Shown one piece after another: positions 2,411 to 41,082 of a stretch of DNA of 41,082 nucleotides (the first letter of the stretch is position 1; each line of letters opens with the position of its first letter). Position numbers and translations under genes: made by a program. The notes beneath the pieces were generated by a model. It worked only from the letters and a program-made list of their open reading frames with translations, had not been told where the DNA came from and searched no databases. This stretch comes from a virus. The stretch lies in the IMG/VR virus record IMGVR_UViG_3300030238_000004, positions 1 through 41,082 of that record. The stretch is one strand, 5' to 3'.

Positions 2411-2433
2411 TCTCCCAATAGTGGGTGTTAAAT
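2411..2433 (-). promoter_or_regulatory. Phage RNAP promoter variant (T at -1) upstream of the dNK gene
   Basis: ATTTAACACCCACTATTGGGAGA; overlaps the gp12 stop codon. Confidence 0.6.
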
Positions 2434-5002: not shown

Positions 5003-5596
5003 TTATCGGTCAATGGTTAGGTTGTCGAACATGTTGAATGAACCATAGTCCAGTTCGTATTCCATGACAGACGCTTGTAGGTCGATAATCTCATTACCTA
5101 ACACAGTATCAATCTCAGGAGCACCAAAGAATCGAATGTTAAATTCCTTAGCAGCTTTAGTCACAATAAGTGATTTAAATTGTTCAGGCATTTCATCAAA
5201 GGTTTTCTGAGAGATTAGGTTTACAGTGATAGCTGAAGGGAAACGGTCAGTACGAGCGATACGGTCATAGACGTAACCACCACGATTGACATAAGGTGTG
5301 TTACCTTCAGTTGAAATCACAGATAGATAATCAGGCATATAATTGATAAGACCAGAGAATGTATCAGGAGTTAGTGTAGCACCTTCATCAATATTGAATG
5401 TCCAACCTTTAGATTGCTCTTGGCGATTAATCTTCTGTAGGATACGACGAGCATTCACTACGTCCAAGTTAGCATCACCTTCAAGTGTGTTCACTGGGGA
5501 TTCACCAATAGCAGCCAGAATGTCATTCACAGCAGATAGTTCAGCTTGATATGACCATGAGGATTCATAAGGGTTTATTGTTGTTGTTGTCGTCAT
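5003..5596 (-). CDS. Tail tubular protein A (T7 gp11-like)
   Basis: ORF 5003..5635 trimmed to ATG 5596 (AAGGAG RBS). [26 protein letters not shown]... and [10 protein letters not shown] parallel T7 gp11. Confidence 0.9.
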
Positions 5597-10741: not shown

Positions 10742-10764
10742 TCTCCCTATAGTGGGTGTTAATT
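10742..10764 (-). promoter_or_regulatory. Phage RNAP promoter (consensus)
   Basis: AATTAACACCCACTATAGGGAGA, followed by GGGGGACTAAAAG. Confidence 0.9.
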
Positions 10765-15064: not shown

Positions 15065-15087
15065 TGTTCCTATAGTGGGTGTTAAAG
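15065..15087 (-). promoter_or_regulatory. Phage RNAP promoter upstream of DNAP
   Basis: CTTTAACACCCACTATAGGAACA. Confidence 0.8.
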
Positions 15088-23514: not shown

Positions 23515-23537
23515 TATTCCTATAGTGGGTGTTAATT
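23515..23537 (-). promoter_or_regulatory. Phage RNAP promoter (proximal of a tandem pair upstream of ligase)
   Basis: AATTAACACCCACTATAGGAATA. Confidence 0.8.
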
Positions 23538-23646: not shown

Positions 23647-23669
23647 TCTCCCTATAGTGGGTGTTAATT
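23647..23669 (-). promoter_or_regulatory. Phage RNAP promoter (consensus; distal of the tandem pair)
   Basis: AATTAACACCCACTATAGGGAGA followed by GGGGACTAAAGG. Confidence 0.9.
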
Positions 23670-23735: not shown

Positions 23736-26426
23736 TTAACTAAATGTGTAAAGTGATTTCAGAATCTCACGGATATCTAAGTTACCTTTACTTGGTAGAG
23801 CTGGCATCTTCTCAAGTTGAGACTCATGAAGTTGTTCAGCGAACTCCTCGAAGAACTCAGCGATTACATCATGTTCTTCATAAGTGTCTACAAGAACTTG
23901 GCGAACCTGTTCAAACATCACATGAGCGAAACCAGCATGACAACCGAAAGAGTCATGAATCATAGCGAAAGAGTGAACACCGTGACGAGCACAAGCGTTA
24001 ACTGTTAGCTGTAAGTGGCTTGCATCCATTGAGTGAATGAAGTTAGGGGCGATACCTGAAGCCTGTTTTGCAGCGTCAATCTCAGGGCGGCCATCTTTAC
24101 CAGTTTTGTCACCAGTGTTAACAGTCACACGGATACGTTGCTGGCCCATGAAGATAAGGTCGATACGCTTTTGGTCTTGCTTAGTGTACTCAGACCATAC
24201 AGGGAAACCAGCAGGAGTCGTCCAGTGTACAGGCATTGCTGGCTTAAGGATTTCCCCTGTCTTCTTCTCTTTAACAACAGCAGAGACAAGTTTAGCAGAA
24301 GACTGTAACCATTCCATTGCTTCAACAGCAGCGATAACAGTAGTCTTAACAGCATTCCAGATTAGTTTAGCCATACCACGAGCATACTGAGAAGCATCAC
24401 GAGCATCACCAAACATAGCACCCTTACCAGAGTCGATAGCTGGCTGGATGGTATCTTCAAGAACTTGGTCGGCAAAACCGTATTCTTTAGAACCATAAGC
24501 CAGTGTCATTACTGAGCGTTTAGTTACACCACGGTTCACACCGAACTCAAGCCATACACGAGCGATACGCTTAGTACCAAACGCAAGACGTTCAACGATT
24601 TCACCTGTCTTCTTGTCTTCCTTGGTCTCGTAGTAATCCTCAGTGCCATTCTCAAGCATATCCTGAAGAACAACGTTTACCTTGTCAGCTACGATACCGT
24701 AAATGTCTTGAGGCTTAGGACTTGGAGTAAGGTTAACAGCAGCACCACCCACTTCATCACGAAGCATTGCAGAGAAGTGTTGTAGACCAGAACAAGTACC
24801 ATCGAAAGCAAGTGGTAGTTGAGATTCAAACAGTTCAGACTTACCAGATTCACAGTAAGCAGCCCACTCGAAGCAGAATGCAAGGAAACAGAACGGTGAA
24901 TCCTGTTCAGCCCACCAAGTGTTATCTAAAGGGGCTTTAGCTGAAGCAATGATGTTAGCTTCGTTATCAGCAACCCATTGTACACGGTCATCAAGAGAAA
25001 CCTTGTCAACACCAGCACAGTTAGAACCATGAACAGCCAGCCAGTAACCACCTTGAGAGCCTACAGGTATTTTATTAGCGAAAATCAGTAAGCCTTTAGT
25101 CATATCGTTACCTTGTGGGTTAAACATTGGGATAGCGTATACACGACCACGCCAGTCCATGTTGTAAGGGAAGTAAATAGAGCCGTACTTAGAGAACTTG
25201 TTAGCTTGCTCAAGGGCAAACTCAAGGCTTAGACGACGAGATTGACGAGCTTTCTCTTTACGGTAGATAACAGCAGCATTCTTCTTCCATTTCTTCATAC
25301 GGTCAGCATCAAGAACTTCACCAGTTTCAGGACACACAACGCCGTCTTCCATCGCTGGTTTGTCAGCTTTGTTTAGACTTGGTACATCTTCAACAGGACA
25401 CTCATCCCAGTTAACAACTTGATTAACAACAGCAAGAACATCACCATTGATTTGCCATGCAGTCTCTTGAACAGTGTTGATTGAAGCGTACACATCAGGC
25501 ATATCAACGTCCATATAACGCTGTAGAGCACGTTTAGAGCCTACACGAATCAAGTTAAGAGGACGGCGACCTTTAGCCCAGTAGCCACCACCTTTCACAC
25601 CATTCCATTTCTTAGGTGGAACAATCATAGGTTGGAACATTGGAGAGATACCAGCCAGAGCATGAGCACGAGTCGTTAGACGCTCGATGTAGTCAGGGGC
25701 AAGGCGTACAAGTTCCTGAGCAGTAGCGCCAGCATGAGCACGTTCCATAACCACCAAGTTAGTAGACTCGATGACCATTTCAATCAGACGAATACCGAGG
25801 TTCATCTTGTCCATCTTGTCCCAAGGCTTCCAAGTGTCGTTCAGTTCACCTTTGTCCAGCATACCAGCTTCAACAGCTTGCATGTATGCCTTCTTGAAAA
25901 TCATACCGTTACGCTTATCAAGGTTAGGTTTCACACGTTGTTTAAAGTGTTGAGCTTCCTGTTCACGGATACGACCAAACTGTACTTCATCTTCGATGTT
26001 GTTAGCGATAGTCGAAGCCACACGTTGTAGGTCAGCAGATTCTTCCTTAGCCAAGACCATTAGGATTGACTTGATAGTAATCACAGCCATTGAATCAGAA
26101 GGACACTGTTTGAATAGGTTCTTCCATACAGGCGGTTTACCTTTACCACCAGCATTCTTGAAGTCCTCAATGTGAGCATGTAGAGCAGGGATAAGAGTGT
26201 CTAACAGAGGTTTAGCGATAGCGTTGTCACAAACTTCACCACGGTTAATTTGACGTTCCAGAGCCTTCATAAAGCGAGCTTCACCAAGAGTGTAAGACTC
26301 ATGTTCAAGCAGCAACTGTTCAGCAGCAAGGTCTTGCCCGAAGTTATCAGCCAGTACATTGTAAGGCATGATTGCATGAGCGATTTCAGAGAAGTTATTC
26401 AGTTCAGGTTTAATCACGTTTGACAT
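23736..26426 (-). CDS. Single-subunit DNA-dependent RNA polymerase (T7 gp1-like)
   Basis: 896 aa vs 883. ASGIAPNFIHSMDASHL, FAMIHDSFG and LHESQLEKMPALPSKGNL parallel T7 RNAP. Confidence 0.97.
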   Translation of the reverse strand: MSNVIKPELNNFSEIAHAIMPYNVLADNFGQDLAAEQLLLEHESYTLGEARFMKALERQINRGEVCDNAIAKPLLDTLIPALHAHIEDFKNAGGKGKPPVWKNLFKQCPSDSMAVITIKSILMVLAKEESADLQRVASTIANNIEDEVQFGRIREQEAQHFKQRVKPNLDKRNGMIFKKAYMQAVEAGMLDKGELNDTWKPWDKMDKMNLGIRLIEMVIESTNLVVMERAHAGATAQELVRLAPDYIERLTTRAHALAGISPMFQPMIVPPKKWNGVKGGGYWAKGRRPLNLIRVGSKRALQRYMDVDMPDVYASINTVQETAWQINGDVLAVVNQVVNWDECPVEDVPSLNKADKPAMEDGVVCPETGEVLDADRMKKWKKNAAVIYRKEKARQSRRLSLEFALEQANKFSKYGSIYFPYNMDWRGRVYAIPMFNPQGNDMTKGLLIFANKIPVGSQGGYWLAVHGSNCAGVDKVSLDDRVQWVADNEANIIASAKAPLDNTWWAEQDSPFCFLAFCFEWAAYCESGKSELFESQLPLAFDGTCSGLQHFSAMLRDEVGGAAVNLTPSPKPQDIYGIVADKVNVVLQDMLENGTEDYYETKEDKKTGEIVERLAFGTKRIARVWLEFGVNRGVTKRSVMTLAYGSKEYGFADQVLEDTIQPAIDSGKGAMFGDARDASQYARGMAKLIWNAVKTTVIAAVEAMEWLQSSAKLVSAVVKEKKTGEILKPAMPVHWTTPAGFPVWSEYTKQDQKRIDLIFMGQQRIRVTVNTGDKTGKDGRPEIDAAKQASGIAPNFIHSMDASHLQLTVNACARHGVHSFAMIHDSFGCHAGFAHVMFEQVRQVLVDTYEEHDVIAEFFEEFAEQLHESQLEKMPALPSKGNLDIREILKSLYTFS

Positions 26427-26572
26427 AAGGATGTTCCTTTAGGGTGTTAAGTTAATAAATAATAATGATTATGATGATTATAGTAATCTTAGAGAAGAAT
26501 ACTTAAAGATATCTTATAGTCAATCATAAAGTTATCTTTAAGGAGTCTTTAAGTTTAAAAGCTCTTATAGTC

Positions 26573-26595
26573 TTTCCCTATAGTGGGTGTTAATT
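26573..26595 (-). promoter_or_regulatory. Phage RNAP promoter upstream of the RNAP gene
   Basis: AATTAACACCCACTATAGGGAAA; left arm of the inverted repeat. Confidence 0.8.
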
Positions 26596-26615
26596 AAGAC
26601 CAGCCATAAGACCAG

Positions 26616-26638
26616 CTTTAACACCCACTATAGGGAGT
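26616..26638 (+). promoter_or_regulatory. Phage RNAP promoter on the + strand (antisense to all genes)
   Basis: CTTTAACACCCACTATAGGGAGT read on the + strand, +1 at 26633. Identical to consensus from -15 to +5. Right arm of the 18-bp inverted repeat. Confidence 0.6.
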
Positions 26639-26646
26639 ACTACATG

Positions 26647-27483
26647 TTATTCACCACGAACCCAACTTACAGGATCAGTAATTACTAATTGTGCCTGTCC
26701 AGCAACCCATTTGACCATCACATTCTCATCATGAGTGTCAAACGATGCGATATCCTTAAAGAACTCACGAATGTTCTTACATTGAGCTACAAAGCCCTCA
26801 AGAACATCTTTACGAGTCTCAAGGACTCGACGTAGTGAACCCACTTCATCATAGCTCTCACAGCTATGTAGTGTTCTCATAGCGAACTGTTCGATAGTCT
26901 TTTCACCATGTAACCAAGCGTTATCAATCAGACCATTAGCGATTTCAAACTGTAGACGAATGAATGCTTTATCATCGTTATGAATATTAGCATCATGAGT
27001 CAGGTCTTCAAAAGTCTGATACTCAGGCATAACAACCATGTAAAACTTATCGAAACGCTTCATGAACTCCACTTCAGCTACACTATCAAACTTAACACCA
27101 ATCAGTTGTTCACCGATTGCGATACGGTCTTTACAGTAAGCAGCATAAGCAGCGCCAGAGTCTTCTTTCTTGAAGCCAATCTTAATGACCTTACCAGCAA
27201 GACCATCAAAGCGTACAGCCATTGAGAAGTGACCAGAGCCAAGCACAGTGATGCCAGCCTCTTGAAACATCAAGCACATCTTATAGTACCAATCTTGACA
27301 ATTAACACCGCAGTCGGCATCTGTAGGGACATCACCCATAGCATGTTTAGTAAGAGCACTAAGAGCATCACAGCAAGCTTCAAGATATTCTTCATGAGTA
27401 CCTTCATGTTTCAAGACATTAAGAGCCTGTACGTCAGCGATTAGGTTGTTAAGAGTGATTGCACGTTCAATAGCGTTAGACAT
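26647..27483 (-). CDS. Protein kinase (T7 gp0.7 position; kinase-like fold)
   Basis: ORF 26647..27531 (GTG) trimmed to ATG 27483 (AAGGAAA RBS). Glycine loop LGSGHFSMAV, lysine KVIKIG, DTHDENVMV (D-x-H-x-x-N) and ITDP (DFG-like). Confidence 0.6.
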   Translation of the reverse strand: MSNAIERAITLNNLIADVQALNVLKHEGTHEEYLEACCDALSALTKHAMGDVPTDADCGVNCQDWYYKMCLMFQEAGITVLGSGHFSMAVRFDGLAGKVIKIGFKKEDSGAAYAAYCKDRIAIGEQLIGVKFDSVAEVEFMKRFDKFYMVVMPEYQTFEDLTHDANIHNDDKAFIRLQFEIANGLIDNAWLHGEKTIEQFAMRTLHSCESYDEVGSLRRVLETRKDVLEGFVAQCKNIREFFKDIASFDTHDENVMVKWVAGQAQLVITDPVSWVRGE

Positions 27484-27523
27484 GATTCTATTTCCTTTAA
27501 GAGTTCGGATGATATTATCCAGA

Positions 27524-27546
27524 GAAGCCACTCATTGAATGACTTC
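27524..27546 (-). promoter_or_regulatory. Conserved stem-loop (RNase III-site-like) upstream of the kinase gene
   Basis: RNA GAAGUCAUUC-AAU-GAGUGGCUUC, 10 bp. Confidence 0.5.
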
Positions 27547-27568
27547 GAGTATACTACCAGACCAGCGT

Positions 27569-27604
27569 AAAGATAATCACAAAGATAATCACAAAGATAA
27601 TCAC
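27569..27604. repeat. 12-bp x3 perfect tandem repeat (aaagataatcac) plus a degenerate 4th unit to 27616
   Basis: Read directly. On the - strand it is GTGATTATCTTT x3, just upstream of a TATACT hexamer (27548-27553). Confidence 0.9.
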
Positions 27605-27682
27605 AAAGAATGTATCTTTGAGCAGTGGATTAGTGAACTTAATGATTGTTAGTGTTAATCAGATTTCAGTCTTCATTATTCA

Positions 27683-28102
27683 TTATTTAGCCATCCAGTA
27701 GTTCATGTTATGGTCTAACGTGTAGATACCTACTTCATGAGCTTCTTCACGGGTAACTTGAGTCCATGTACCCAGTTCTTCAGACCACTCAAGAGCTTTA
27801 AGAGAGCTATGACCATTGTTTTGATTCATCACAAGGATACAATCTTGCTCATAGGTCTTACAGTACATGTTAAGGCACTGATTCACCTCAGTCAAGCTAA
27901 GGTTCTGAATCATTAGAGAGACTTCACGACTTGCTTCAGGCATACCATCTTCATGATACACACCTACAACAGTCTTCAGGTCACACATACCATTCTTGAT
28001 GAGGCGAGCCGTTACATCTTCATGACGCTCAAGGTTCTCATTAGTTGATAGAGTAGCACGGAAAGCAGAAGCAATTACAGTGAAGTGATTAGAGTTATTC
28101 AT
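27683..28102 (-). CDS. S-adenosylmethionine lyase/hydrolase (T3 gp0.3 SAMase-like)
   Basis: FTVIASAFRATLSTNENLERH, GVYHE and YEQDCILV parallel recalled T3 SAMase VLVSAFRSNLCDEVNMSRH, GCYRE and WEQDCVLV. Early-gene position. Confidence 0.55.
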   Translation of the reverse strand: MNNSNHFTVIASAFRATLSTNENLERHEDVTARLIKNGMCDLKTVVGVYHEDGMPEASREVSLMIQNLSLTEVNQCLNMYCKTYEQDCILVMNQNNGHSSLKALEWSEELGTWTQVTREEAHEVGIYTLDHNMNYWMAK

Positions 28103-28113
28103 GGAGTTATTCC

Positions 28114-28347
28114 TTAAAGAGTAAATGTTAGTTGAGAAGCAACAAAGTAACCAAGACCAATACCACCAGCCAAGGATACTACAGACATACCAGCAAGTGC
28201 AACCATTAAGTTACGCTTCAGGTTGATTCCCTTGTGTGCTAACGTTAAGCTACCAGCAAAGTATTCAACTGGTTTGCCCTTACCATGCCATTTAGAAGCA
28301 CATTTAGCGTTAGACCAAGCAAGAGTCATAGTAGACATAGTAGTCAT
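28114..28347 (-). CDS. First early protein: small tail-anchored membrane protein (77 aa)
   Basis: ORF 28114..28401 trimmed to ATG 28347, because the longer start spans the promoter. The C-terminal segment LMVALAGMSVVSLAGGIGLGYFVA is hydrophobic. Confidence 0.55.
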   Translation of the reverse strand: MTTMSTMTLAWSNAKCASKWHGKGKPVEYFAGSLTLAHKGINLKRNLMVALAGMSVVSLAGGIGLGYFVASQLTFTL

Positions 28348-28356
28348 AAGAGGTTT

Positions 28357-28379
28357 ATTTCCTATAGTGGGTGTTAATT
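28357..28379 (-). promoter_or_regulatory. Phage RNAP promoter immediately before the first gene
   Basis: AATTAACACCCACTATAGGAAAT. Confidence 0.8.
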
Positions 28380-28389
28380 GATTATCATA

Positions 28390-28414
28390 AAGGCAATTCA
28401 TTTAGAACTACCTT
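28390..28414 (-). promoter_or_regulatory. Conserved stem-loop (position of the T7 R0.3 RNase III site)
   Basis: RNA AAGGUAGUUC-UAAAU-GAAUUGCCUU, 10 bp. Confidence 0.55.
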
Positions 28415-28560
28415 GAGTTAAGCAATTAGCACGACCATACTACCTAATTCCAAATTGTTAAAGAACCGTATTACTACCCTCAGTTACTATGAGTGAGGAC
28501 CCAGAGCCGTTATAGTGTGCTCTCACTTTCCAATACAGTTGCCCTTAGTGGACGATGCAG

Positions 28561-28590
28561 ATTTTAACCTGAAGTGGTTCACCCTGTCAA
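28561..28590 (-). promoter_or_regulatory. Host sigma70-type early promoter (third of three)
   Basis: - strand TTGACA-N18-TAAAAT (GTTGTTGACAGGGTGAACCACTTCAGGTTAAAATC). Confidence 0.65.
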
Positions 28591-28734
28591 CAACTATTCG
28601 ATACTCATTCGGTGATTCATATGCCTACCGATAGCTACTACGTGGGCTATCCTTGCCTCGTATCAAGTTGTATGTGTGTGTGTTTACATCGTCCAGATTA
28701 TTAAAGAGCGGTGTTCCCTTAGAGAACGTTGAGG

Positions 28735-28764
28735 ATGATACCTCAGTGGCTTGTGCCTTGTCAA
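28735..28764 (-). promoter_or_regulatory. Host sigma70-type early promoter (second of three)
   Basis: - strand TTGACA-N18-TATCAT (GTTATTGACAAGGCACAAGCCACTGAGGTATCATC). Its flanks are homologous to the 28561-28590 promoter. Confidence 0.65.
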
Positions 28765-28900
28765 TAACTTTCGGTATCTATCTGATATATCGCACTGTGT
28801 AGCCTTCTGGTCTGCTAATCCTGACCAGTCGCAAGGTATTATCTAATGTTAGCATTTTTACCCTCCTTACTGACTACATATAGCCGTTACCGTAGTAACA

Positions 28901-28917
28901 GTGTGTGTGTGTGTGTG
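28901..28917. repeat. (GT)8 dinucleotide repeat
   Basis: gtgtgtgtgtgtgtgtg. Shorter related tracts lie at 28669-28684 and 23589-23602. Confidence 0.9.
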
Positions 28918-28984
28918 ATAGATACCTAATTGTTAAAGAGCAATATCAAGTAGACTGAGTAACTGTCCCGTCTTGATGTGGCTC

Positions 28985-29012
28985 AGTATAATGATATTTG
29001 AATTGTTGTAAA
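28985..29012 (-). promoter_or_regulatory. Host sigma70-type early promoter (first of three) with an AT-rich upstream region
   Basis: - strand TTTACA-N16-TATACT, preceded by ATTATTTTAGTATTTATTGAAATTAGGAC. Confidence 0.6.
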
Positions 29013-29120
29013 GTCCTAATTTCAATAAATACTAAAATAATTGTTATATGCCTATAATCTGTACAATCTTATAGTTCCCTCTATATAGGCTTAATCTGTA
29101 CTCTTGATGATATCCTTTAG

Positions 29121-29162
29121 GAGTATGTCTTGAGGAGTATGTCTTGAGGAGTATGTCTTGAG
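29121..29162. repeat. 14-bp x3 tandem repeat (gagtatgtcttgag)
   Basis: Read directly; a partial 4th copy lies at 29198-29210. Confidence 0.9.
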
Positions 29163-29245
29163 GATATCCTTATGTACTACTTCTACTTCTACTTCATGAG
29201 TATGTCTTGATGATATCCTTATGTACTACTTCATGAATACATACA

Positions 29246-29363
29246 GATAAACACAATGATAAACATAATGATAAACACTTACAGATAAACATAATGATAA
29301 ACATAATGATAAACACAATGATAAACACAATGATAAACACTTACAGATAAACATAATGATAAT
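29246..29363. repeat. Array of ~10 GATAAACA(C/T)AAT units (12- or 14-bp period)
   Basis: gataaacacaat gataaacataat gataaacacttaca ..., read directly. Confidence 0.9.
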
Positions 29364-29389
29364 CTTGATGATATCCTCTTGTATATGGT

Positions 29390-29437
29390 CTTGATGATTG
29401 TCTTTAAGAGGTACTTGATGATTGTCTTTAAGAGGTA
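29390..29437. repeat. 24-bp x2 tandem repeat (cttgatgattgtctttaagaggta)
   Basis: Read directly; abuts the palindrome at 29436-29450. Confidence 0.9.
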
Positions 29438-29450
29438 CCCTATGGGGGTA
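29436..29450. other. Near-palindrome TACCCCCATAGGGTA, resembling the CCCCCATAGGGGGTACC element ~25 nt from the T7 left end
   Basis: - strand ...AGACCACAGATACCCCCATAGGGTACCTCTTAAAG versus recalled T7 nt 1-50 TCTCACAGTGTACGGACCTAAAGTTCCCCCATAGGGGGTACCTAAAG. Confidence 0.5.
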
Positions 29451-29497
29451 TCTGTGGTCTTGCTTAGATTAGATGGTCACTCAGATTTTTCTGATAG

Positions 29498-29561
29498 TTT
29501 TCTTATCGACTTTCTTATCGACTTTCTTGATGATAATCTTGATGATAAACTTGATGTAGCA
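29498..29561. repeat. Two adjacent 12-bp repeat sets: tttcttatcgac x2, then cttgatgata(at/aa) x3
   Basis: Read directly. Confidence 0.85.
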
Positions 29562-29658
29562 GAGATAAGACCTTAAGACACCTAAGACACTATCTTAAAG
29601 ATAATCTTATAGTATGCTTAAAGTCTTATAAGTAAGTGTTGACTCTAACAATGAATTA

Positions 29659-29784
29659 CTATGCAGTGATTAATGTAATAGTAATTCCATGGAGAAACCA
29701 CTCAATGAAAGACTCACCTTCGCACCACAAGAGAACATAGAGTAATACTTGGAGTAGGAATGGTCTTAGTTGTTTAATAACCAT
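29659..29784 (-). CDS. Small hydrophobic ORF (41 aa) at the T7 gene 19.5 position
   Basis: ATG 29784 with AAGAGGG 8 nt upstream. MVIKQLRPFLLQVLLYVLLWCEGESFIEWFLHGITITLITA. The longer track ORF spans the promoter. Confidence 0.4.
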   Translation of the reverse strand: MVIKQLRPFLLQVLLYVLLWCEGESFIEWFLHGITITLITA

Positions 29785-29930
29785 AACAATAACCCTCTTA
29801 CAGTACACACTATGAGGAGGACTTAGAGATAACATAAAGATAACATATAGCTTATAGTAACCTTTAGTCCCCCCCTCCCTATAGTGGGTGTTAATTACAT
29901 CCCTGTAACCTTTTATCACCAACCCATAAC
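29781..29930 (-). repeat. Copy R of the dispersed direct repeat (partner 23515-23669), including the terminase 3' end and the right-end promoter
   Basis: See copy L; same strand and same order of sub-elements, rotated. Confidence 0.85.
29874..29896 (-). promoter_or_regulatory. Phage RNAP promoter after the terminase gene (phiOR analogue)
   Basis: AATTAACACCCACTATAGGGAGG followed by GGGGGACTAAAGG. Confidence 0.85.
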
Positions 29931-31670
29931 ATTGAGTCCTGAGTAGTCATCATCGTCGTCGTCCTGATTAATCATAATCTCCATGTTACCACTGAGCATC
30001 TGTACGTGAGACTGGTCAGCTTGGAGAGCATCCTTACCGAGCATTTCCTCAAGCCATTCAGCAGTACAGTCATCAGCACCAGACTTAGCATCACGCTCTA
30101 ACTGTTCCACGAAGTACGCTACACCAATCGCAAAGGCATCCAATCGGTCATCATGAGCCAAAGCTCCACGTTCACGAGTAAGACGACTTAGTTGATAGAA
30201 CAATGAGTATTTAACATCATGTACTCCATCAGTGTTACGAGCAGTCTGATAGTCCTTCTGGATTGAAGATTCCATAACAACGATACGGTGAGAACCCATC
30301 ACAGGCTCTAAGGTATCCGCTATACGCATTTCTTTCTGACCTGTACTCTTTGTTTCAGTAAGAGCACAATTATGAATACGATGCAGCACAGGGCTTAGAA
30401 TCTTAAGGTACATACCATCACCAAAGTTACCTTCTACAAGGACTTCGTTAACGTTCCAGCGTTTAGCTACTTTAGCAAGTTCTTCAAGAGTCTTGTCTTC
30501 ATAGCCTCCACGGAAACCACCAGCTTCCATAAGATAGATATAACCATTTAGGAAGTATAACACTGCATAACCAGTTTCATCCTTACCACGACCAGAAGGG
30601 TCAATAGCCATAATCTTAGCGGTGTACGTAGAGCTACGCTTATCAGCAGTCTCATAGCGATGGAATGTATCACCTTTAAGACCAATCTGAGGGACGCTCT
30701 GTAAGAGGTTCTGAGGGTTCGGAAGCCAACCGTAGGTCAATGGTGCTTTATCAGTTTCCAATGCAGCTACGATGAAATCACGGACTTTCAGAGGGTATCT
30801 CTCAGCATCACTAAGGTTAGGGTTAAGCATGTATTGCATCTCAAAACCAGCTTTACCATAAGATAGCTCACGTTCACGCAAGTCTTCATCATCGAAGCGC
30901 ACAGGGTCACATGGAGTCCAAAAGAATGCTTCAGGGTTATCACCCATATCTTCCATAAGCATAGGAGCTAAACGGTCGCCATAAGCATCTAATGAAGCTC
31001 GGTCTTTAGGGTAACGTGCAGTCCAGATAGTTGTCTTATAACCACGTCCCTCAAGCTCTCTGTAAAGAGTCTGTTCGCATTGTGGAGTCCCTAAGTATGT
31101 GATAACACCACTTGGTTTAAGAATAGCATCAAACTCTTTCACAAGCTCACCAAGACGGTCACGAGCCATTTGAGTTGAACTGTTATTAGGAACTTCAACG
31201 TCATCTGCTAAGATGTAATCGGCACGACTACCCGTTAACTGACCTGTAATACCTACTGATTTCACAGAGGGTGAATGGTCAGGTTTAGCTAACCCAACAT
31301 CAAAGCTGATTACAGAATCACGTTGTCCCTGTTTAGGTTTTAGCTCCTCAAGGAAAGGTAGTAGTTCAATAATACGTTTGATAAAGATTGAGTTAGAGTC
31401 GGCCCGTTCCTTACTTGCAGATACAATTAAGAATTTCAACTGTGGGTTATTCCAAAGCTTCCATACTACGAATGCACATAGAAGAAACGATTTTCCAATC
31501 CCTCGAAATGCTTGAAGGATGAATCTACGGCTATCACCCGAAGCTACCTTGCGTGCCATATCCACCTGTGACCTTGTAGGTGGTGGTAAGTTTAAAGCCT
31601 TCCATAGTACCATTACGAATAATACAAAGTCATTCTTAATAGCTTGTAGTTGTTTCTGTTCTTTATTCAT
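29916..31670 (-). CDS. Terminase large subunit (T7 gp19-like)
   Basis: 584 aa vs 586. Walker A-like [15 protein letters not shown], nuclease-domain [12 protein letters not shown]. Last large gene before the repeat region. Confidence 0.9.
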
Positions 31671-35340: not shown

Positions 35341-35363
35341 TCTCCCTATAGTGGGTGTTTATT
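35341..35363 (-). promoter_or_regulatory. Phage RNAP promoter upstream of the tail fiber gene
   Basis: AATAAACACCCACTATAGGGAGA followed by GGGGACTAAAGG. Confidence 0.85.
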
Positions 35364-40600: not shown

Positions 40601-41082
40601 TAAGTTTAGCTTGTAGATGTTCTTTAGAATCCACGTTCTTCAATAAAGCTTCATAAGCTGTAGATGGTAGACCAGAGTCAATGATAGTCTTACGGTCTTC
40701 ATCATCAGGAGTATAGAACATACCTTGGTCTGGTGCAATTTGAGCAAGACCTTTAGATACACTTCCTGTCTCAAGACCAACCATAAGACCAGTACCCATG
40801 ACACTTGTACCAGCACCTACAGCAGCAGAATCAACAAGACTCCAATCATCATCGGCAATCTGATATTCAGTAGCTTTGCTATTAGCATCACCACCTTGCA
40901 TCAAGATGTTCAAATCTGTAGGCATCATTGAGGAATCTGGTTGTTCTTTAGGTTCTTTAGGTTCAGGGATAAGTTCACCACCACTTGTATCCAGTTTATT
41001 ATGATGAGTATCCTTAGTATCAAATAGATTCTGGAAGTTGTCATCAGCAGCACTGAAAGGAACATCACGAGGTGCGGTCTTA
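37638..41082 (-). CDS. Internal virion/ejection protein (T7 gp16-like), C-terminal ~1115 codons. The true start is ATG 602 across the junction, giving 1315 aa in total.
   Basis: The frame stays open upstream of the listed ATG 40928 to the window end. LDKYAMNYAYGV...LPDGTEWSPFKL...SVNGQIAINAVTGK parallels recalled T7 gp16 VEKYAMDKAYGI...MPDGQQFSVNDL...RVNGDIAIMGSTGK. 1315 aa vs 1318. Confidence 0.85.
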   Translation of the reverse strand, partial: KTAPRDVPFSAADDNFQNLFDTKDTHHNKLDTSGGELIPEPKEPKEQPDSSMMPTDLNILMQGGDANSKATEYQIADDDWSLVDSAAVGAGTSVMGTGLMVGLETGSVSKGLAQIAPDQGMFYTPDDEDRKTIIDSGLPSTAYEALLKNVDSKEHLQAKLKVIQQNVKFQDKVNEQGMSHQVAMGLGDFTGDPFSYVPLGYANLANKAFKGTKIINNRLVPQLAESLTTTYLSEKYLRNGITGVEADVGGALIGATVMVTGMAGVSKGLDSMMRRVSNSETALNTGREDPTYNTADMHPQGERTVVDEDTEVLQSGRVMTRGIIDEPVAGEARSDLRFWQHDSITTALKDKATASTAMLFDTPVQGFKDTEFTTSAPTINNVVRNLNDRDNEVFSLWDDYREAEFQRGQSLGKYQSLEDVDVEFKMILDNHDNMDLTTLTPSQKIMIKAYQEFATRHAEFIKDPSRVSGKQGAPAVAENMIDDMNWRTRTYNRLAVNEFVSKFDNPEAAQRMFADAIKKAFHEDMNAARKAYNEKVIREELEVVAEGELAADVLPDELLDKYAMNYAYGVINNGNTTMFDTDMFEGTTTRKTDHFKTRMNIPLHGKVNLPDGTEWSPFKLEYNDFGAQMRSYSTSVNGQIAINAVTGKHVKDFSKEIDAMAKQSEGGKALKSMLDNVLRNSPYDKYTNIDVASDTLRDATLGLTSAMTHTANMVEVFGNLHRQGVVPAAMKHIVKALGKDLQKIMRMQPKTLKREFGTMMMGKALTRRMNMTREDYVNQLMTRVDKSDNASKALANLRYGVALTVDKLPWVRAMRYIHEGMIDAGNQVALDEMLRVSRGMVKGRMLKDTSIVSDKFLQANNIPREVADKAIAHLKLLPDGIDVKTEDLPSDFDMTSWMNSPDTMNVMRLVHAFNDELMAKTDNVGQTLVQPSGAFGRLFWMYKRFATVSTQILSRNAGEIKDLGRVGRMVGVLTAGGLATMHYVGTTVYKASAIDDKYEREKYLDDNLSLDKIAAASLKRHPMLAGWNMIYDGFGGMVNAPYAGIGKTTFEDVAGTYAGRGETSQSFLADVTRNGLGMVAPARVVGAAGAATFNAGHLAWNALDDEHLRYNQEKNVEKALYKSLETFVPNEPHMRKLYKQLTTLFQE
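40984..41082. repeat. Terminal assembly overlap (identical to 1-99)
   Basis: Exact 99-nt identity with the window start. Confidence 0.95.

Follow-up and report, generated by a model that had tools for sequence, protein, structure and literature searches.

A probable antisense promoter for the phage RNA polymerase, back to back with the gene 1 promoter, in a group of T7-like phages

Phage T7 is the textbook case of one-directional, temporally ordered transcription, and Dunn and Studier are said to have found in 1983 that all T7 promoters point the same way as the genes. Switch-off of the early genes is only partly explained, by inhibition of the host RNA polymerase (RNAP). The opposite case has been mapped by ONT-cappable-seq in phage LUZ19, where P001, a promoter read by the phage RNAP, faces every gene; it is conserved across 15 Phikmvvirus species (Putzeys et al. 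2024, PMC10914365). P001 has been proposed to keep transcription from reaching the early genes or to block read-through from the late region of a neighbouring genome, and its transcripts leave the genome at the left end and continue into the structural genes at the right (PMC10914365). In LUZ100, the phage promoter phi1 lies before the RNAP gene and is auto-amplifying, and it has been discussed together with lysogeny control based on MarR (PMC10134795). The work on LUZ19 and LUZ100 was all that our literature search turned up, with no prior description in Studiervirinae of a promoter pair such as the one analysed here, and the paper on Aeromonas phage JELG-KS1, a carrier of such a pair, does not mention promoters. 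The original prediction for our locus implied that a phage promoter facing all genes lacked precedent. The mapped antisense promoter of the phiKMV-like phages makes it less unprecedented (PMC10914365).

The window, that is, the whole stretch of 41,082 nt analysed here (IMG/VR virus record IMGVR_UViG_3300030238_000004), begins and ends with the same 99 nt, which indicates a circular assembly and a complete genome of ~40,983 bp. All long open reading frames (ORFs) lie on the - strand in the T7 order of early genes, gene 1 (RNAP), ligase and remainder (Table 1), and the left end in phage orientation was placed between ~29.0 and 29.65 kb. The RNAP encoded by gene 1 is 70% identical to that of Vibrio phage ICP3/N4 and 83% to P0002. 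RNAPs of GenBank phages are at most 70% identical to it, with the Vibrio cholerae phages ICP3, N4 and VP4 as the top matches, and an exact-protein look-up of the window RNAP returned no record. The usual tandem promoters after gene 1, at the position of T7 phi1.1A/B, are present at 23649-23667 and 23517-23535.

The original prediction had named the genes on the antisense path as a kinase, an S-adenosylmethionine (SAM) lyase and the first early gene, and domain analysis confirmed these identities. The kinase ORF had no Pfam match of its own in the local Pfam copy, and its homologue in the closest relative, L002, carries PF27024, the family of the T7 kinase; the lyase matched PF23780. Short tandem-repeat arrays lie upstream of the sigma-70 promoters at 29012, 28764 and 28590. 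Along the path of the predicted reverse transcript, the class II T7 pause/termination signal ATCTGTT was not found. A terminator scan detected no intrinsic terminator on either strand in 26300-30000, and an Rfam search of 26000-30000 at E <= 1 gave zero matches.

Table 1 Features of the early region and of gene 1 in the window (positions on the window; promoters are predicted)
Feature	Position	Strand	Remarks
Gene 1, single-subunit RNA polymerase, 896 aa	23736..26426	-	PF14700 and PF00940
Imperfect inverted repeat in the gene 1 leader, 21-nt arms, 86% complementary	26495..26549	-	Candidate processing/regulatory hairpin
Forward phage-RNAP promoter of gene 1	26573..26595	-	-17 to +6 is AATTAACACCCACTATA followed by GGGAAA; +1 at 26578
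Spacer between the 19-nt arms, 24 nt	26594..26617	.	Imperfect 12-nt tandem repeat TAAGACCAGCCA/TAAGACCAGCTT
Reverse phage-RNAP promoter, leftward in phage orientation	26616..26638	+	-17 to +6 is CTTTAACACCCACTATA followed by GGGAGT; predicted +1 at 26633
Last early gene, T7 gp0.7-type kinase homologue, 294 aa	26647..27531	-	58% identity to the PF27024-bearing L002 protein
S-adenosylmethionine lyase, early gene	27683..28102	-	PF23780, E = 1.6e-30
First early ORF, 95 aa	28114..28401	-	No family match
Three strong sigma-70-type promoters, clustered	28561..29012	-	Presumed host-RNAP early promoters
Sigma-70-type promoter	28590-28561	-	TTGACA-18-TAAAAT
Sigma-70-type promoter	28764-28735	-	TTGACA-18-TATCAT
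Sigma-70-type promoter	29012-28985	-	TTTACA-16-TATACT

The pair under study lies where the early region, transcribed by host RNAP, gives way to the phage-transcribed remainder of the genome. Its arms, 26575-26593 (TCCCTATAGTGGGTGTTAA) and 26618-26636 (TTAACACCCACTATAGGGA), are separated by 24 nt and complementary at all 19 positions, which makes the repeat one nucleotide longer than the perfect 18-bp inverted repeat originally described. When 3 mismatches or fewer were allowed, the 19-mer TTAACACCCACTATAGGGA was found 23 times in the window, against 0.01 expected by chance, and 22 of these copies are on the - strand and one on the + strand. Likewise, the 10-mer core CCACTATAGG was found 23 times on the - strand and once on the + strand of the window. 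Since the assembly covers the whole circular genome, the + copy is indeed its sole + strand promoter, as had been claimed. The - strand copy had been placed ~150 nt upstream of the RNAP gene, and the distance from its +1 to the RNAP ATG (26426) is 152 nt. The reverse +1 lies 14 nt from the stop codon of the kinase gene, the first gene met in the antisense direction.

The prediction that the + copy matches the promoter consensus from -15 to +5, with its +1 at 26633, and does so as well as the genic copy near 15067, was borne out. Compared with the strong-promoter consensus (AATTAACACCCACTATA followed by GGGAGA), the + copy departs at -17/-16 (CT for AA), like several genic promoters including the one at 15067. 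On a promoter matrix (PWM) built on the 22 forward sites of the window, it scored 30.0 bits, compared with leave-one-out scores of 23.1-38.1 bits for the forward promoters (n = 22) and a maximum of 12.5 bits for shuffled sequence. It outranks just 2 of the 22 forward promoters on this matrix because of the CT at -17/-16. At its predicted start, CACTATA is directly followed by GGGAGT, so that GGG comes immediately after the CACTATA element as in T7-group promoters, and the reverse copies of the eight phages considered below co-vary with the promoter specificity of each phage. The + copy is thus a T7-group promoter by the sequence-level definition of that group. An assembly artefact was considered and rejected: assembler k-mers are longer than the 19-nt repeat, and seven independent assemblies and one isolate genome show the arrangement again.

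The forward promoter is followed by a very AT-rich leader of 150 nt, which is also the 5'UTR of gene 1. Within this leader, downstream of the forward promoter, lies the imperfect inverted repeat of Table 1, whose sequence is also present in L002 (2885-2930). This repeat overlaps a sigma-70-like TTGACT-16-TATTCT element at 26523-26496.

Relatives were drawn from a large protein collection on the basis of RNAPs 83% to 60% identical to that of the window, and their contigs were examined together with Aeromonas and Escherichia phage records and one MAG-binned contig. Wrong-strand sites in these loci were sought by scanning each locus with a promoter matrix of its own. Other routes gave no close relative, namely megablast of the region against GenBank phages and a search of IMG/VR seeded with the RNAP protein. 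IMG/VR contained no exact match to the pattern of the inverted pair or to the 19-mer alone, and a metagenome scan with a 15-mer returned chance single matches only. A few unrelated phages have a similar promoter without homology to the window.

A back-to-back pair just upstream of gene 1 was found in seven other phages, namely L126, L211, L212, L213, L214, L215 and L128/L297, the last being JELG-KS1. Each pair is made of the carrier phage's own promoter sequence, and apart from the reverse copy no wrong-strand promoter was found in any of these phages. The pairs comprise at least five promoter sequences (TTAACACCCACTATAGGG; TTA(C/G)TGCTCACTATAGGG; CCCTCACTATAGGG; CC(C/G)(A/G)ACTATAGGG; and CCCACACAG(A/T)AG). 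In L126, from a fish-gut metagenome and with an RNAP 65% identical to that of the window, the arms TTA(C/G)TGCTCACTATAGGG are this phage's own promoter and form an 18-nt inverted repeat just upstream of gene 1, 94% complementary and with exactly 24 nt between the arms. In L211, L212, L213, L214 and L215, a forward promoter precedes gene 1 by 90-170 nt, and a single minus-strand promoter lies immediately upstream of it. The cultured carrier, Aeromonas phage JELG-KS1 (ON604651.1; host Aeromonas salmonicida), has a complete genome in which the motif occurs 17 times in the forward and once in the reverse direction, the reverse copy again being upstream of gene 1 as in the window. Its predicted minus-strand start is at nt ~2013, and ORF6 ends at 2003. 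This reverse copy is perfect, its forward partner has a mismatch, and its score of 35.1 bits lies above those of 10 of the 17 forward promoters. JELG-KS1 also has tandem promoters after gene 1, at 5030 and 5078. In phiA014S, the reverse copy is present in decayed form. A forward promoter upstream of gene 1 was found in L002, L125, L126, L127, L128, L129 and L211-L215. The presence of reverse promoters at the same place in seven further phages strongly supports the claim that the + copy is of promoter quality and no chance palindrome, and suggests that the reverse promoter is probably a real control element.

The early genes are not the same among the carriers, which indicates that no particular gene is the target of the reverse promoter. 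We also searched for a hidden leftward gene among antisense ORFs of at least 30 aa following the eight reverse promoters; none was in common with the window and the lengths were unconserved. Similarity of antisense ORFs among carriers was confined to places with homologous sense genes. Right after the reverse +1 of the window there is a 14-codon ORF (beginning GGGAGTACTACATG), which has no counterpart elsewhere.

The distribution of the reverse copy is patchy. The closest relative, L002, whose RNAP is 83% identical, uses the same promoter sequence as the window, with two same-direction promoters 52 nt apart upstream of gene 1 and no reverse copy among its 11 promoter sites. On its own, L002 would suggest a recent and possibly meaningless inversion in the window. 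The original prediction had named absence of the second arm in close relatives as an observation that would count against it. This is literally the case for L002, but is contradicted by the wider clade. ICP3/N4, L003, L125, T7-Ah, L131, Titus and L295 have no reverse copy either. The survey as a whole covered ~100 loci of 8-15 kb. An IMG/VR set of ~80 T7-like loci (6-15 kb, centred on gene 1, RNAPs 45-70% identical, including T7-, T3- and K11-like phages) contained no locus with a wrong-strand promoter. Three minus-strand matches in this set were dismissed, the underlying motifs not being promoters. In a neighbour-joining tree of the RNAPs, seven carriers (phiA014S counted) fall in one clade, and the window is the sole carrier in the sister group formed with L002, L124, L003 and ICP3. 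This pattern implies a history of losses or the transfer of an intergenic module, and the lack of a reverse copy in L002 and other relatives indicates that the element is dispensable.

Six of the eight pairs, the window among them, have their +1 sites 53-55 nt apart, and the other two pairs 41-45 nt, which makes two classes of spacing. It is 55 nt in the window (26578 and 26633) and L126, 54 nt in L213 and JELG-KS1, 53 nt in L214 and L215, 45 nt in L212 and 41 nt in L211; the decayed copy of phiA014S gives 44 nt. The spacers cannot be aligned among carriers, their length being kept and their sequence not. Adjacency of the two promoters is explained by the little room available to them between gene 1 and the early gene before it, where a back-to-back orientation avoids mutual collision. 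The conserved spacing may reflect inheritance alone, or may also couple the promoters locally.

A rival possibility is that an RNA hairpin is the selected feature. In this reading the arms would pair in host read-through RNA, and the stem, lying just before gene 1 in the early RNA, would be processed by RNase III, as at T7 R1, or would stabilise the RNA; the distal arm would resemble a promoter only through complementarity. We regard this as improbable, even though the pair has the map position of R1, just upstream of gene 1, and the window hairpin is predicted to be very stable (-44.1 kcal/mol, z = -8.2). Hairpins are also predicted in all seven relatives (-24 to -40 kcal/mol), and a stable one is expected in host-made read-through RNA wherever two promoters are inverted. 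An R1-like site was assessed by two features. A stable stem-loop in the intergenic early RNA was found in the predicted fold, but pairing maintained by compensatory or G-U changes was not: the arms differ at 46 of 184 positions in the eight phages, and 7 of these differences are G-U compatible. At 35 of the 46, by contrast, the base of the reverse arm is also used at that position by another forward promoter of the same phage. The differences fall mostly at -17 to -11 and +4 to +6, where promoters vary, and at -10 to +3 the reverse arms follow the consensus of their own phage with few exceptions. The reverse arm also retains positions that can have no bearing on pairing when its partner is imperfect. 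It is the forward arm that strays from the consensus in JELG-KS1 and L215, the reverse arm being closer to it. Because the arm differences track promoter variation and not pairing, promoter function is favoured over an RNA hairpin, and since the pattern fits selection on the promoter, the perfect 19-bp repeat in the window would be incidental. The comparison of the arms thus identifies the perfect inverted repeat as a by-product of two near-consensus promoters, itself apparently not selected. Moreover, a perfect 19-bp stem is unlike the interrupted sites of T7 type, and no Rfam family matches it. The gene 1 leader already holds a separate inverted repeat, with its sequence common to L002, together with sigma-70-like elements, so an R1-like role need not fall to the promoter stem. 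The RNase III function included in the original prediction is therefore weakened.

Three further explanations were weighed. The divergent pair might serve DNA metabolism, as a transcription-activated bidirectional origin, or it might prime, open or protect the left end, at a distance of ~2 kb, in the course of replication, recombination or the formation of concatemers. In T7, an origin is a phage promoter with AT-rich DNA behind it, and leading strands are primed by transcripts of the T7 RNAP. The AT-rich leader, which is also the gene 1 5'UTR, comes after the forward promoter here, and a reverse transcript would meet no terminator-like site on its way to the repeat-rich left end. However, the tandem promoters after gene 1 are present in both the window and JELG-KS1, so that an extra origin is not needed, and many relatives are without the reverse copy, which leaves this explanation unlikely. 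Less likely still is a local effect on the gene 1 promoter, in which divergent coupling via negative supercoiling, or steric competition between polymerases, would tune RNAP autoregulation. The promoters are always directly adjacent, the two spacing classes are about one helical turn apart, and spacer length is conserved when sequence is not. Nevertheless, adjacency is equally explained by confinement to an intergenic region of ~200 nt, the spacing classes follow phylogeny and thus amount to few independent observations, and a lone forward promoter before gene 1 is a common arrangement among phages. Finally, the reverse copy could be functionless and left over from a promoter-mediated rearrangement, such as the inversion of one member of a tandem pair like that at the same place in L002, and its absence from many relatives agrees with this. 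A neutral element would be expected to decay, as it apparently has in phiA014S, whereas it is intact in eight phages with RNAPs only 60-67% identical to that of the window, and promoter specificity has changed at least five times with the reverse copy changing in step. Given this conservation across specificity changes, a neutral relic is the weakest rival and very improbable.

Taken together, the recurrence and co-variation of the reverse copies make it likely that selection has kept the + copy as a working leftward promoter of the phage RNAP, for which we infer initiation at 26633 from the sequence. The original prediction offered antisense shut-off of early mRNAs and replication or end processing as roles for such a promoter. 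Sequence alone cannot separate the two, and we favour a version of shut-off. That leftward firing works specifically against early transcription has, in our estimate, close to an even chance, if marginally on the low side. According to this shut-off model, host RNAP would start at the sigma-70 promoters at 28.6-29.0 kb, transcribe the early genes and read through into gene 1. Once made, the phage RNAP would fire rightward from 26578, giving positive feedback on gene 1, and also leftward from 26633, ~2-2.4 kb head-on against host RNAP. The leftward RNA would be complementary to the messages of the kinase gene, the SAM lyase gene and the first early ORF, and would then extend to the sigma-70 cluster and the repeat-rich left end. 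The early programme would be shut off through collision and through sense-antisense duplexes, which RNase III could cut. On concatemers, leftward firing would also block read-through from the late region of the neighbouring genome.

More broadly, and with somewhat less confidence, we propose that a Studiervirinae lineage of Aeromonas and related aquatic and fish-gut bacteria may have a conserved bidirectional promoter module at the early/middle boundary. By means of this module, the RNAP would amplify its own gene in one direction and dismantle the host-driven early programme in the other, by head-on collisions and genome-scale antisense RNA, and the fixed spacing (53-55 nt, or one helical turn less) would reflect promoter coupling. 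A working reverse promoter would break the rightward-only rule of T7. If the proposal is true, early genes would have an active off-switch triggered by the polymerase itself, a regulatory layer missing from the T7 paradigm, and antisense transcription by single-subunit RNAPs would reach beyond the phiKMV-like phages. The carrier JELG-KS1 is in culture, which makes the idea directly testable. In addition, the eight pairs provide ready-made examples of RNAPs matched to promoters of differing specificity, and include compact bidirectional promoter modules that may be of use in synthetic biology.

In comparison with described elements, the forward promoter of the window resembles LUZ100 phi1 in predicting positive feedback of the RNAP on its own gene; phi1, unlike the window promoter, has no described reverse partner (PMC10134795). 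The predicted stem shares with T7 R1 its map position and its stability in host-made early RNA, but it consists of two promoter copies and its pairing is without compensatory change among relatives. With the 23-bp promoters of the T7 group (-17 to +6; class II/III of T7, T3, K11 and SP6), the + copy has in common the AT-rich -17 to -13, the specificity region at -12 to -8, CACTATA at -7 to -1, the GGGAG start and a score inside the range of its own genome. It differs in running against the gene direction, whereas promoters in the ~80 surveyed T7-like loci all run with the genes. The closest counterpart is P001. Both are promoters of the phage's own single-subunit RNAP that face all genes in the early part of an Autographiviridae genome, and both are exceptions among the promoters of the same phage (one of 23 in the window and one of 18 in JELG-KS1). 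The position is conserved here too, upstream of gene 1 in eight phages, with absence in others including the nearest relative. On the other hand, the two belong to different subfamilies and have unrelated promoter sequences, and the start site of P001 was experimentally mapped whereas that of the window is predicted. P001 lies near the left end, while the window site is ~2-2.4 kb inside, at the early/gene 1 boundary, where a leftward transcript would first cross the early genes, and it stands back to back with the gene 1 promoter at a fixed distance. We therefore treat the window element as a putative functional analogue of P001 rather than a member of the same element family.

The leader of gene 1, which encodes the single-subunit RNA polymerase (RNAP), was found to contain a sigma-70-like promoter (TTGACT-N17-TACTAT) downstream of the forward phage promoter and ahead of the start codon. 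Alignment indicated that this promoter is kept throughout the clade, with ACA(C/T)TAAGT repeats on either side of it. Therefore, gene 1 appears to be fed in three ways, by read-through from the early region and by a host promoter and a phage promoter of its own. In addition, a 14-nt unit, ACACTAAGTCTTAA, is repeated about five times in tandem in the gene 1 leader of L214 (5900-6000), a relative carrying the back-to-back promoter pair; this array is an expansion of a motif present in one or two copies in the other phages.

The spacer between the paired promoters of the window (26594-26618) is an imperfect 12-nt tandem duplication (TAAGACCAGCCA/TAAGACCAGCTT). AGACC, which the spacers of three relatives with the pair (L126, L213 and L214) also contain, is frequent immediately downstream of T7-type start sites and may be a remnant of earlier promoter copies. 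In L002, the closest relative of the window, the region between the kinase gene and gene 1 (2440-2990) contains an additional sigma-70-like promoter (TTGACA...TACTAT) and an 82-aa ORF, and the ORF region is followed by two tandem phage promoters 52 nt apart and pointing in the same direction. These tandem promoters may represent an inverted version of the promoter pair of the window, or may have taken its place.

Among the strongest promoters of the window, a subset with a GGGAG start has in common an extended leader, GGGAGAGGGG(G)ACTAAAG, which is transcribed and conserved. This leader is found 3' of gene 1, close to the right end and upstream of some late genes, and could form a 5' stem, be a site of processing or act as a signal for translation. 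Promoters nearly identical to those of the window (AATTAACACCCACTATTGGA) also occur in Escherichia phage vB_Eco_Titus (OX090892.1), whose RNAP is just 61% identical and which has no phage promoter immediately upstream of gene 1. The metagenome scan with a 15-mer further recovered an unrelated contig (Ga0255052_10054065) containing five copies of GTATTAGAGACACCCACTATAGGCCAAGAACACG, 66-138 nt apart, at 59-480, which constitute a repeat array.

Promoters and repeats located in the window and in relatives with the promoter pair
Feature	Genome	Position	Strand or basis
Promoters with the extended leader	Window	10744-10762, 23649-23667, 29876-29894, 35343-35361; also 2413-2431	- strand
Sigma-70-like promoter of the gene 1 leader (examples)	Window	26496-26523	Alignment
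	L126	5930-5965	Alignment
	L128 (Aeromonas phage JELG-KS1)	2093-2125	Alignment
(GT)8 run, left-end region	Window	28901-28917	
Left-end tandem array, 14-nt unit x3.6	Window	29115-29164	
Left-end tandem arrays, 12/24/62-nt units	Window	29239-29373	
Left-end tandem array, 24-nt unit x2	Window	29390-29438	
Left-end tandem array, 12-nt units	Window	29499-29556	

Because its first and last 99 nt (1-99 and 40984-41082) are identical, the window is a complete genome in the form of a circular assembly, with about 40,983 bp of unique sequence and any terminal repeat collapsed; no position for the exact genome ends was found in it. Upstream of the early promoters, the left-end region (28900-29600) is crowded with short tandem repeat arrays, which are reminiscent of the repeat arrays that adjoin the terminal repeats of T7.
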